A DNA stretch of 64,000 nt, taken from NCBI RefSeq assembly GCF_051903065.1, contig NZ_CP178439.1; one strand, 5' to 3'. This stretch comes from Escherichia coli. GTDB taxonomy: Bacteria; Pseudomonadota; Gammaproteobacteria; Enterobacterales; Enterobacteriaceae. Numbering within the stretch: the stretch's first letter is position 1; the number at the start of each line of letters is the position of its first letter. A program made the position numbers. Of this stretch, positions 57,001 through 64,000 are shown piece by piece.

Positions 57001-60000
57001 CTCTGGCATCACTGCTCCACGATGCACCCCGATCAGCTTAGCGTCTGAAAATGAAGATGCACCGGACCTGCATGAAGCGGAACGGTGCCCAGCTGAGTGT
57101 TTGTGGGCACAATGAACCGCAATTTCATGATGGGAATGAAAGATGGCTGGTGGCCCGCTGATATGAACGCTTACCCTGCATAACGTTACTAACCACAATC
57201 TTTTCACTAAAAGAAAAAAGGGTTCCTCCGCTTTAGAGGAACCCTTTCAAAAGGTGCCGATGGCATACTAATCCACACCCTGAAAAGAGGGGGGTTGCCC
57301 CCCTCTTTGTCAGCTACTTACCGGATTCGTAGGCCAGGATAGCAAATACCTCCCTTGTTCCGTCTTTCATCCGCAACTCGCAAAGCGAGTTTCGTGTGAG
57401 CCAGGTGAATATCAACAGCGTTAAACAAACTATTAATATGCACAAAACAATGGGTTGGTTCGGCATTTTCATGGCCTTCTTCTCCTTGCATTTAAGCAGG
57501 CAAGAGGCTACGCTGTGTGTGACTAGCATACAGGGGCCTCGGGTTGTACTGACCCCAGAAAGTTGGACAGTTAAACACGAGGCATATAGGTCTGATTCCG
57601 ATATTCAATTGGAGTCAGACCTTTTAATTTCAGGCTAATTCTTCTGCTGTTGTAGTATTCAATATATTCCGTAACAGCATCCTTCAGCTCGCTTATATTA
57701 CTGAACTCATCAAGATAAAAACACTCCGACTTTAAGGTTCCAAAGAAACACTCCACCACAGCATTATCCAGACAATTGCCTTTTCTGGACATGCTTTGTT
57801 TAATACCATGTTCTTTAAGGATATTTTGATATCTTCTCATACGATACTGCCATCCCTGGTCAGAGTGCAGAACAGGATGCTCGTGAGGATTAAGCTTTTT
57901 GAATGCCTGATCGAGCATATTCTCGACCATGTTCATCACTGGTCTTTCCGAAAGGCTGTAAGAAATAACTTCGTTGTTGAAGAGATCTATTACTGGAGAC
58001 AAATACAGCTTGCGCCCATTGACTGCAAATTCAGTAACATCGGTAACCCACTTCTCGTTTGGCCGCGTAGCCTTGAAATCTCTTTGGAGAACATTGGGGG
58101 CGGTTTGCCCTACCTCTCCTCTGTAAGAGCGGTATCGCTTGACCTTAATCGCTGCCTTCAGTGAGAGGATTCCCATCAGGCGCTGAACAGCTTTATGGTT
58201 AATCTGTTTCCCTTCTCGATGAAGAGACAGCGTTACCCTACGGTATCCGTATCGGCCTCTATTCTCATGATAAATCTCACCAATACGCTTTTTAACGTCC
58301 GCATACTTGTCAGGCTTGCTGAGAGCCTTTAGATGGTAATAAAACGTACTGCGCGGTATCTCCGCAGCCCTGAGAAGCTCATCAAGAGGATAAAACTGCC
58401 TTAGCTCGTTGAGTACTTTCACTTTTTCGTGGGATGAGCTAAGGCTTTCAGCTTTTTTAGATACACAAGCCGCGTTTCAAGAAATCGAACTTGCCTTTCA
58501 AGATCCTCAATGCGTCGGTCTTTTGACAGCTCCAATGCTGATGCCGCTTTTTCTGGATCAACTGATATTGCAATGTTTCTTTTGGTGCCAATCTTGAGCG
58601 CGCGTAAACCAGCTTCTCCGCGCTCTTCATAAACCTTCAGCCACCTGGCTACAGAACCACTACCAGCAAGCATAAAGTGAGCAGCAGCCTGATTAAGGGA
58701 CATGTGCTGCTCGATCACCGCTTTCACGACCTTAATACGCAACTCAGGATCAGCACTAACACCTTTAGGTTTGGGAATTAAACCTTTTTCTCCATGTTTT
58801 TCATAGAGGGCAACCCATGTCCTGACCTGGGTTCGGGGGACACCAAAACGTGCCGAGATGATCCTGTAACCATCATCAGTAGTGAAGTAGTGATTCACGA
58901 CTTCAAGGCGCTTTTCAAAAGGGTATTTTGGCTTTGACATATCAGGGGCTATTCCATTTCATCGTCCAACAAAATGGGTGCAGTACAGGTTAATTGAAAA
59001 ATTACTCGGGGCTTTCTGCTTTTACCACAGTCAAACAGTGTTACCGCTGGCTGGGGCAAAAGCCTCCAGCACCAGCGTCATTATATCACTCTGCCCTGAT
59101 CAGCCAAACACCCTGCCTGCATAAATCATTGATTTATAATTTATTTGACATGAGTCACTTCCGGTTGTCGGAGACAGTCTTTTTACACTAAAGAAAAGGG
59201 TAACGGGCAGCTGCTTGGTCGGAACATACAGTGCAGTTCCTGCCCGTTTAATTTCCGGATGCAATGGTAGGATCAGGAGGCACTGGTTCCGTTGATTAGG
59301 GAAAGCTTATGTGCCTGAATACGGCTGTATTCGAGATGGGATGGAATATTACAGATGCGCTCCAGTCGATCATGCAGCCTCGTGTAGGTCAGTCGATGAA
59401 TACCGGACATTTCATCAAGTAGCCAGCGCTTGATGTAAGGGTTACAGGAAAGCCGGGCAAGATCGTCGTCATCCACTTCGTCAAAGAACCAGTACTGCTC
59501 CATCGGGACTACCTGAAATATCCACGGCCGGGGATAGTCCCCTGTGACAACCAAAAACCATGCGAGAAAGCATAGACACAGCTCAACGATCATCAGCATC
59601 GAAAATTGCGAATAACTTAGACCAGGCACATAGGGTGAACTATCCGCAACATACCCCCTGAACAATTCCGCCACAAGGTAGCCCAATAGCGACAAGGCCA
59701 GCATCAGGGTCAGGATTAATCCCCCATTAAACGCTACCGAAGCCTTTTGAACCCGATCAGGTGCTGTCCGGCTGCGATAGTTGGTCACTACTCTTTCTAC
59801 AAGTGCCCTTATGGCAGCCTGTTCTTTACTGACATCAGCTCCGGAAAAACCGGACGGGCTTTTATTTAATTCAGTCATACCCCACTCCTGTTATGTGCTC
59901 TACTGAACAAACACGTAGATCATACAGAGCTCACGGACGCACTCCTGCCAGATAAAGGAGGGAATTTGGCTGTAAGACGGTTAGCCAACAGTTCAGGTTA

Positions 60001-63000: not shown

Positions 63001-64000
63001 TCTTCGATCAGTTTATTAATATCCGCCATTTCAAATACGAGAGTGGTCACAGGCTTACTCTCCCTCTTCAGTGGACAACATCAGATACTTTGTTGCCAGC
63101 AGAAGCTCTCCCACATCCTTGAGGGACAATTCAGCTTTGCCTTCTACGGCAAGCTGCAAGCGCTGTCGAATTGCATGAACAGAATCTGAAGATAAAGATG
63201 CCATTTTGCGCAAAACGGCATTAGCCTTTTCTACAGCAGGATACAGAATTTCTGAGTTGGTATTATCTTCGTCATTATCAAAGATAATTTCAGAATCCAT
63301 ATTGATGTTATCTTCAAGCCAGCTTGAAAGCACTTCAAGTAATGACATCACCTTTTCAATTTGCATATCGCCTCCTCTGTTAATGTGAAACAAATATAAC
63401 AAAGTGGCTTACCCGGCTAATAACCTGAGCAGAAAGTTTTCGCACTTTGTTTGAAAACAACTTTTCTGCTCAGGTTAATGTTAAAGTCGCTGTGTAAAAG
63501 ATAAAGGGCACTAAAGATGATTTAAGCATCAAACAGACTAAATCGGATTCCGTCTTTTATATCGCTTTTAAAATAGAATGAATGAAATATAAATTTAGCG
63601 TTTATGATTGAACGCTGTAGAGGTTGATTTATCCAGTGATATTCAGTTTGGGGCCTTAAAAAGGTTTTATTTTGGATTCGAATTACAAAGGGAGCACCGA
63701 CATTTTTCTGGGGGCTCCCGCAGAGAAAAAGCGGTGAGGCTATGAAGACGAAGAGGAGGTATTCGACGAAATACTGTATGGCCACAGGAGAGCTTCAGCA
63801 CCCATATCCTGCCGTCTCGCTCGCCTGTAATGATTTCAACATGTACAACGTCATACCACGTAGTTGTATTTCTCACTTTGTTTATGCTTCCTGACACCGT
63901 GTGAACGCAATCTTCGTCTGGATGCGTTCATAGATGGAAAACTGCCTTTCAATGGAACCGGCATTAGACAGTAATTCATGAAGCTCAGCAGAGTCTGTAT

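Follow-up and report, generated by a model that had tools for sequence, protein, structure and literature searches.

We analyzed a run of nine small open reading frames (ORFs), all read on the minus strand at positions 59273-63402 of a 64,000-nucleotide stretch of Escherichia coli contig NZ_CP178439.1 (hereafter, the window), which belongs to an mcr-1-type IncHI2 plasmid. This block is part of the core backbone of IncHI plasmids, and we put at about even the chances that it constitutes a module of the plasmid's conjugation regulon, assisting transfer or establishment and possibly the evasion of host defenses. It is not a new kind of system, but a variant of the known conjugation-linked accessory gene arrays. 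IncHI2 plasmids play a major part in carrying mcr-1, mcr-9, and extended-spectrum β-lactamase genes, and the block offers a short list of conserved, tra-coregulated candidates together with a candidate cis-element. It is a reasonable, if unproven, place to look for IncHI host-defense-evasion genes, none of which have yet been found in this family.

The initial annotation of this region had described the nine ORFs as unrecognizable genes in a candidate leading-region or anti-defense islet, and had named pseudogene debris, or a lack of conservation in related plasmids, as the finding that would speak against it. All nine ORFs were indeed present and each is preceded by a Shine-Dalgarno sequence; the NCBI Prokaryotic Genome Annotation Pipeline (PGAP) annotates eight of them in identical plasmids. 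Gene order is conserved in the IncHI1 plasmids pEQ1 and R27 and in the IncHI3-like plasmid pNDM-CIT, at about 70% nucleotide identity. Relative to IncHI1 and IncHI3, eight orthologous sets exhibited amino-acid identities of 28-80% and ratios of nonsynonymous to synonymous substitution (dN/dS) of 0.05-0.26; between IncHI2 and the other groups, dS was saturated or nearly so. The block was found in >1000 plasmid records, and it adjoins the Tra1 region in all IncHI subgroups examined. Thus, with the exception of ORF7, gene order is shared by IncHI1, IncHI2, and IncHI3-like plasmids and purifying selection acts on the genes, as expected of the IncHI core backbone. Debris, or spurious ORFs without function, might be suspected from the nonsense mutation carried here by a tenth, small ORF, from the disruption of ORF5 by IS1 in some plasmids, and from the fact that ORF7 has never been annotated. 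We nevertheless consider this explanation extremely improbable: the purifying selection rules it out for the block as a whole, and the ribosome-binding site at every ORF, the 61% ortholog and phage homologs of ORF7, and the detection of transcripts from the R27 orthologs all argue against it.

Positions 59000-64000 of the window are 100% identical to 220-300 kb conjugative MOBH/MPF-F plasmids that are typed IncHI2/IncHI2A and hosted by E. coli, Salmonella, Enterobacter, and Klebsiella. This interval matched 1286 plasmid records, as well as 357 of 5426 complete E. coli genomes, nearly all on plasmids. As an annotated twin we used pMCR_W5-6 (NZ_CP032993.1), for which the record coordinate minus 109734 gives the window coordinate. 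On the map of this twin, Tra1 occupies ~27-47 kb of the window, with (i) trhG-trhH-trhF, then trhY/trhR, on the minus strand, and (ii) beyond a gap and on the plus strand, mobI(traH), an ORF, mobH(traI), traD(traG), traJ-region genes, and genes that encode a peptidase (S49) and a NERD nuclease. The gap, 760 bp with iterated repeats at ~36.5-37.2 kb, is the probable origin of transfer (oriT), because the oriT directly adjoins a mobI-like gene in R27, Rts1, and SXT (PMC10838148). Clustered iterated direct and inverted repeats (CATAGGGTCACTT / AAAAGTGACCCTATG) are found between trhR and mobI(traH) at 36800-36950, and this cluster is the probable oriT core.

Past the NERD gene lies a run of ~35 kb and ~45 genes on the minus strand, broken only by four plus-strand genes and IS150, and the nine-ORF block is a 4-kb slice of this co-oriented run. 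The distance from the block to the probable oriT is 22-26 kb, which corresponds to about ORFs 27-36 on the relaxase side. Consistent with the initial placement of the block downstream of IS150, this element was confirmed at about 57.5-59.0 kb, adjoining the block on its lower-coordinate side. The gaps between ORFs, which had been described as short, are so in some cases (down to 4 nt), but they range up to 374 nt, and the longest of them hides the tenth ORF.

The case for a conjugation-linked module is made largely from R27, in which R0088-R0093 and R0098-R0100 are direct orthologs of the block genes in the same order. On this plasmid, IS10 (R0085) and IS1 (R0094/95) enclose eight genes, and another three map between yigE (R0097) and flmA (R0101), in agreement with the coordinates of R27 deletions 6 and 7. 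R27 differs in having an IS1/corA/yigE insertion that splits the block, an intact small ORF, and an unrelated gene, R0090, in the slot of ORF7. HtdA counteracts the activators TrhR/TrhY (PMC7366339), and published microarray data compare an htdA mutant of R27 with wild type at 25 °C (PMC7366339, Table S4; fold changes below and in Table 1 are from this source). Under these conditions, induction of the orthologs of ORF1, ORF4, and ORF5 (12-17x) matched that of the tra operons (5-11x for the H operon, 8-27x for the F operon), while the slot gene R0090 rose 2.8x; the effect on the block orthologs was gone at 37 °C (PMC7366339). Deletions 6 and 7 together remove R0086-R0100 and yield viable, stable plasmids (PMC4853401), indicating that the block is not a replication or maintenance function. 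Mutants of R27 that lack the block region are thus already in existence.

Carrying these published data over to IncHI2 by synteny, we favor the following model. The ten small genes would form about four transcription units (ORF9-ORF8; ORF7; ORF6-ORF5-ORF4; ORF3-small ORF; ORF2-ORF1), constituting a module (R0088-R0100 in R27) of the co-oriented array that extends for ~35 kb beyond, and downstream of, the relaxase operon. Dispensable for replication and vertical stability, the module would belong to the plasmid's conjugation regulon, activated by TrhR/TrhY and counteracted by HtdA, and would therefore be expressed along with the transfer genes in transfer-competent donors. We infer that new transconjugants would also express it in a burst until HtdA has built up (zygotic induction), with transcription not arising from single-strand promoters. 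The module would encode two small membrane proteins, a family of three small acidic alpha/beta proteins, the acidic ORF9 and DUF3085 pair, and three small basic proteins, and the likeliest role of these products would be to help transfer or establishment in a new host, possibly by evading its defenses.

A different account is the one originally proposed, a classical leading-region anti-defense islet, whose early-entering DNA would be transcribed as single-stranded DNA (ssDNA) by way of Frpo-like hairpin promoters and encode anti-restriction, anti-SOS, or anti-CRISPR proteins. Parts of this proposal held up. The genes are conserved, co-oriented, and beside a hok/flmA-type toxin gene, with an orphan N6/N4 methyltransferase gene on the same strand at a later point of the run; ORF5, ORF8, and ORF9 encode small acidic proteins; the R27 orthologs are co-induced with tra upon loss of HtdA; and DUF3085 genes are found near an hde homolog in MOBH12 plasmids (discussed later). 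All block genes also point toward the probable oriT, as do the leading-region genes of F-like plasmids, although this orientation matters only if the relaxase side enters first. The accessible literature gave no statement of IncHI transfer polarity. By the convention of the field, the leading region is the side of the oriT away from the relaxase (PMC11541004). With the oriT placed from the R27/Rts1 literature, the block falls outside the first ~30 ORFs opposite the relaxase; it is instead on the conventional lagging side, behind mobI-traI-traD-traJ, which read away from the oriT.

The gene content is no more favorable to a classical islet. ArdA, KlcA, PsiB, and SSB-like families, for which the initial annotation had suggested profile searches, and ArdC-type families were absent both from the nine ORFs (Pfam, NCBIfam, PHROG, and PADLOC) and from 43 other proteins of the run (Pfam); the latter contained only N6/N4 methyltransferase, PAPS-reductase/ParB-HTH, Mrr_N, HNH, NERD, and HigB-like toxin matches, and DUFs. 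A search for single-strand promoter hairpins had also been suggested, and a sliding DNA-fold scan did reveal two structured gaps, with best z-scores of -4.6 at 60381-60540 and -4.3 at 63341-63500. The first, which we entertained as the site of an Frpo promoter, turned out to be the coding small ORF plus terminator-like hairpins, and the second is a perfect inverted repeat confined to IncHI2. Both lack conservation in IncHI1 and IncHI3, and the scan, which included no comparison against a reference Frpo model, yielded no Frpo-like hairpin conserved in these groups.

The leading-region anti-defense islands that Samuel et al. 2024 (PMC11541004) described in MOBF/MOBP plasmids (F, IncI, IncN) provide a partial parallel. 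Like them, the IncHI block has dense, small, co-oriented genes directed toward the oriT, uncharacterized families, a hok-type toxin, an orphan methyltransferase further along, and a link to conjugation; unlike them, it is on the relaxase side, >20 kb from the oriT, and its expression apparently depends on the protein circuit of HtdA versus TrhR/TrhY and not on ssDNA promoters. DUF3085 and DUF957 are unmentioned in the supplements of that study. A later survey reported no anti-defense peak on the conventional leading side of MOB-H plasmid groups, so that a real one could be elsewhere, and detected no complete anti-defense system in PTU-HI1A, the IncHI1 group (10.1101/2025.04.03.647016). The same survey dropped IncHI2 (PTU-HI2) for lack of a known oriT and left open how R27 transfers efficiently across Enterobacterales (10.1101/2025.04.03.647016). 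Overall, a classical leading region with ssDNA promoters is not supported, and we regard such an islet as unlikely. We are similarly skeptical of a scenario of relaxase-side-first entry, according to which the ~35 kb minus-strand array, the block included, would be an unrecognised IncHI leading region, its genes would either be transcribed off the incoming strand or undergo zygotic induction via AAAGTWACTTT-marked promoters, and ORF9 plus DUF3085 and the ORF4/ORF5 family would be new anti-defense or host-takeover proteins; if true, it would account for the surveys in which no genes for anti-defense were found on MOB-H/IncHI plasmids.

Among Pfam families, DUF3085, the domain encoded by ORF8, reportedly shows the strongest enrichment in plasmids of broad host range; it has no known function and often adjoins RadC (PMC12826799). 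In the MOBH12 plasmids pAsa4c and pVPS91, DUF3085 homologs (35-42% identity) share a strand with AAA-ATPase/bet/exo genes and are located 3-5 genes downstream of them. These genes are homologous to the hde operon of IncC, which experiments have shown to provide evasion of restriction and CRISPR on entry (PMC7498323). Further along these arrays, orphan methyltransferases and a large PAPS-reductase protein are encoded. The hde operon (vcrx089-093 of IncC and SXT/R391; Roy et al. 2020, PMC7498323) resembles the IncHI system in its MOBH-family background and its long co-oriented backbone array, in which orphan methyltransferases and the large PAPS-reductase-family protein again occur. In contrast to hde, however, the IncHI block and run have no homologs of the AAA_5 ATPase (vcrx089, AAA_5/CbbQ_C), SSB, RecT/Bet, or YqaJ/Exo in a Pfam scan; DUF3085 alone is shared with the block, and it is not among the genes that were shown to be required for hde. 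Four families, ORF2, ORF3, ORF7, and ORF8 (DUF3085), have phage relatives, and the block is reminiscent of the early or accessory small-gene clusters of lytic phages, in which such homologs occur among short uncharacterized ORFs; since the phage homologs are themselves uncharacterized, they lend no function. We take the DUF3085/hde, RadC, and phage associations to be suggestive, and not functional evidence. The PAPS-reductase-family protein shared by the IncHI and MOBH12 arrays is ~800 aa in length and has a ParB-type helix-turn-helix in IncHI2 (28203-30587 of IncHI2 locus L001). Its presence and that of the orphan DNA methyltransferases in both sets of arrays (pAsa4c and pVPS91 for MOBH12) suggests that IncHI and MOBH12 plasmids draw on a common, uncharacterized pool of MOBH accessory genes.

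A candidate cis-element emerged from the palindrome AAAGTWACTTT, one copy of which had been noted at 62146; this copy proved to be a member of a strongly enriched family. The window contains 11 exact copies (24490-62157), as opposed to 0.06 expected (~180-fold), a number reached in 0 of 100 shuffles, and the motif is often extended to GAAAAGTWACTTTTC. In a 45-kb reference stretch of IncHI2, intergenic copies account for 8 of the 10 present (P = 1.4e-4), and all 8 are 91-217 bp upstream of whichever minus-strand start codon comes next. The oriT gap is flanked by two copies, which are upstream of the tra operons R and H, and a copy in R27 is 212 bp upstream of the ORF6 ortholog R0091, where htdA-dependent induction steps up. 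The palindrome recurs in IncHI1 and pNDM-CIT (it was recorded in loci L001, L002, L003, L004, and L010), and is absent from the MOBH12 plasmids examined; we found no description of it in the accessible literature. Judged by its distribution, it looks like a candidate operator of a global plasmid regulator. Operator palindromes dispersed across the backbone characterize the KorA/KorB global regulon of IncP plasmids. The IncHI element is similar in that a short perfect palindrome recurs across the backbone, mostly in promoter-bearing gaps that include the transfer promoters, with some copies far from promoters; the likeness is one of analogy and not homology, and the IncHI palindrome is only a candidate site. 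ORF7 was considered as the palindrome-binding protein; since the palindromes persist in IncHI1 despite the loss of ORF7 there, this idea was rejected.

Several observations weigh against a conjugation-regulon module. First, the expression data derive from donor cultures of the IncHI1 plasmid R27, and neither from IncHI2 nor from transconjugants; as many as 139 of 181 expressed R27 genes rise in the htdA mutant, while the ORF2 ortholog R0099 is essentially unexpressed and R0089 rises only 1.8x from a high basal level (PMC7366339). Second, some palindrome copies are intragenic or in a convergent gap, and the copy upstream of ORF6 is at a non-conserved distance in IncHI1 and missing from the corresponding gap of pNDM-CIT, so that strict positional conservation of this copy was not upheld on cross-plasmid comparison; further, the R27 transcriptome paper mentions no binding site with which the palindrome might be compared. 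Third, family, PDB, and fold searches revealed a recognizable biochemical function in none of the block proteins. Finally, the IS1 disruption of ORF5 and the nonsense change in the small ORF indicate that individual genes are dispensable in nature.

Such evidence leaves room for backbone cargo, derived in part from phages, that would operate outside the conjugation cycle, tuning host physiology or plasmid cost or countering competing phages or plasmids in the established host, with its apparent co-induction a side effect of near-global derepression. The breadth of the htdA response is in keeping with this idea, as are the high basal expression of DUF3085 at both temperatures, the phage relatives of four families, the presence of membrane proteins and a possible small DNA-binding protein, and the lack of a stability phenotype upon deletion. 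Yet the induction of ORF1, ORF4, and ORF5 is well above that of many genes that rise 2-3x, the position beside Tra1 has been kept in all IncHI subgroups examined, and PADLOC returned no defense-system hits. We view cargo of this sort as possible but doubtful; were the genes to prove irrelevant to transfer, the result would still be a sharper picture of the large unknown part of IncHI backbones.

The earlier statement that none of the ORFs is recognizable was too strong, since ORF8 belongs to DUF3085, ORF3, ORF7, and ORF8 match PHROGs, and ORF9 is labeled DUF957 by NCBI. Nonetheless, when the nine ORFs were compared with Pfam, NCBIfam, PHROG, and PADLOC, only DUF3085 and these function-unassigned PHROGs were returned, sequence searches of the PDB with ORF2, ORF7, ORF8, and ORF9 gave nothing significant, and word-indexed homolog searches reached little outside IncHI plasmids. 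The features of the block are listed in Table 1.

Table 1. Features of the block in window coordinates, with R27 orthologs and their published expression change (htdA mutant relative to wild type, 25 °C)
Feature	Position	Strand	Description	R27 ortholog	Fold change
ORF9	63055..63366	-	103 aa, net charge -11, pI (isoelectric point) 4.4; NCBI label 'DUF957'	R0088	3.8x
ORF8	62559..63050	-	163 aa, acidic, net charge -9; DUF3085	R0089	1.8x, high basal level at both temperatures
Terminator-like hairpin	62504..62529	-	10-bp stem, 6 G-C pairs, T-rich tail; directly 3' of ORF8; consensus scan
ORF7	62186..62479	-	97 aa, basic; unannotated in public records; phrog_26489, E 3e-17
Palindrome copy	62147..62157 (core), 62146-62158 (GAAAGTTACTTTC)	.	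AAAGTWACTTT, 141 bp upstream of ORF6 start codon
ORF6	61803..62006	-	67 aa, two predicted transmembrane segments	R0091	5.3x
ORF5	61524..61748	-	74 aa, acidic, net charge -8	R0092	12.3x
ORF4	61284..61484	-	66 aa; ORF5 paralog	R0093	14.4x
ORF3	60750..61061	-	103 aa; phrog_8549, E 3e-9	R0098	3.1x
Tenth gene (small ORF)	60520..60696	-	58 codons, basic; Cys-rich N-terminus, basic C-terminus; in ORF3-ORF2 gap
Terminator-like inverted repeat	60485..60518	-	perfect 10 bp, T-rich tail; immediately 3' of small ORF
GC-rich hairpin	60398..60429	-	92% complementarity between 12-nt arms; ~25 nt before ORF2 start; IncHI2-specific
ORF2	60094..60375	-	93 aa, basic, pI 10.4	R0099	not expressed
ORF1	59273..59878	-	201 aa, two predicted transmembrane segments	R0100	17.5x

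ORF9 shows 73% amino-acid identity and dN/dS of 0.05-0.06 relative to IncHI1 and IncHI3, and its start is likely the ATG at 63366 rather than the TTG at 63402. Its 'DUF957' label derives only from the NCBI product name and the original R27 note, which recorded 47% identity over 49 aa between the ORF9 ortholog and L0009 of the LEE element; ORF9 has no Pfam or NCBIfam match at E <= 0.1, DUF957 (PF06117) included, and the precomputed Pfam assignments are empty for all of its homologs. The ORF9 stop is 4 nt before the ORF8 start, suggesting translational coupling, and the counterparts of the two genes overlap in pEQ1. ORF8 scores 39.4 bits against the Pfam DUF3085 model (PF11284; gathering cut-off 25, E 6.8e-10), and the match extends over positions 1-87 of the 88-position profile. 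Judging from its structure, the hairpin directly 3' of ORF8 probably terminates an ORF9-ORF8 bicistron.

ORF7 is a real, conserved gene in a variable slot that annotation misses. About 1000 IncHI2 plasmids carry it at >= 95% identity, and in the records inspected no annotated feature lies beneath the match; it has 38-43% identical homologs in 26 phage records as well as homologs in Klebsiella plasmids. Its 61% ortholog in pNDM-CIT (locus L004, 11078-11326) is likewise unannotated. IncHI1 (loci L003 and L010) retains only a 27-aa N-terminal remnant of ORF7 and has an unrelated gene in the slot; the slot gene of pEQ1 showed no orthology to ORF7. ORF6, which follows, is only 28-30% identical to its IncHI1 and IncHI3 counterparts (dN/dS of 0.13 for IncHI1 relative to IncHI3), and a conserved TGTGRTGTAAT block about 35 nt upstream of its ATG may represent an extended -10 element.

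The tandem pair ORF4 and ORF5 is paralogous, as had been proposed (34% identity over 41 aa, E 4e-10), and ORF5 is 80% identical to its IncHI1 ortholog. A third paralog, 51% identical to ORF5, is found about 5 kb past the end of the window (L001 27714-27953) and is kept in all three plasmid groups (L003 16506-16730 and L004 15927-16151). The ORF5 family was present in 1300 PLSDB plasmid records, those listed being large IncHI-type plasmids. ORF4 and ORF5 belong to this family of three paralogs, which is specific to IncHI plasmids. An AlphaFold2 model of ORF5 has a predicted beta-alpha-beta-alpha-beta arrangement (pLDDT 73), with which a fold search yielded generic matches only, none of them informative. 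The IncHI2 copy of the third paralog has a copy of the palindrome 133 bp upstream. ORF5 is disrupted by a pair of IS1 copies in an IncHI2 sub-lineage of E. coli, Salmonella, and Klebsiella (pXD35001, locus L013, 2672-4650), and in other plasmids the same 5 kb has been hit by at least six other types of insertion sequence (IS5, IS3, IS21, IS100, ISCro1, and ISEc23).

ORF3 exhibits 58-60% identity and dN/dS of 0.13-0.15. The small ORF that follows it is interrupted in the window, and in the mcr-1-type IncHI2 lineage to which it belongs, by an in-frame TAG (CAG to TAG) at 60601-60603, while it is intact in R478-like IncHI2, IncHI1, and pNDM-CIT, and annotated as intact in pSTm-A54650; identity is 71-73% over its full length, the part beyond the stop included. 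ORF2 (68-73% identity, dN/dS of 0.08-0.14) has a 46% identical homolog among the short ORFs of a lytic-phage-like contig. In every IncHI2 record seen, the Resistance Gene Identifier (RGI) layer of PLSDB names ORF2 'Brucella suis mprF: defensin resistant mprF' at 100% identity, evidently a database artefact, since a 93-aa protein cannot be MprF. ORF1 shows 43-44% identity and dN/dS of 0.21-0.23.

Upstream of ORF9 is an AT-rich, IncHI2-specific gap (63403-63897). It contains an inverted repeat that is perfect over 15 bp (63421-63435 / 63463-63477), along with ORFs at 63522-63785 and at 63667-63897 that lack annotation, the latter with a Cys/His pattern; neither ORF has a homolog in the IncHI1 or IncHI3 loci. 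ISCro1 is inserted in this gap in p1106-IncHI2. At the other end of the block, IS150 separates ORF1 from a hok-family toxin gene (57314-57433). An Rfam search of the region returned only sub-threshold sok matches flanking IS150 (58911-59074 and 57470-57624), and PGAP calls the mok-like DUF5431 ORF truncated. The insertion of IS150 has probably disturbed a hok/sok control region, and the same IS150 is carried by the R478-like lineage.

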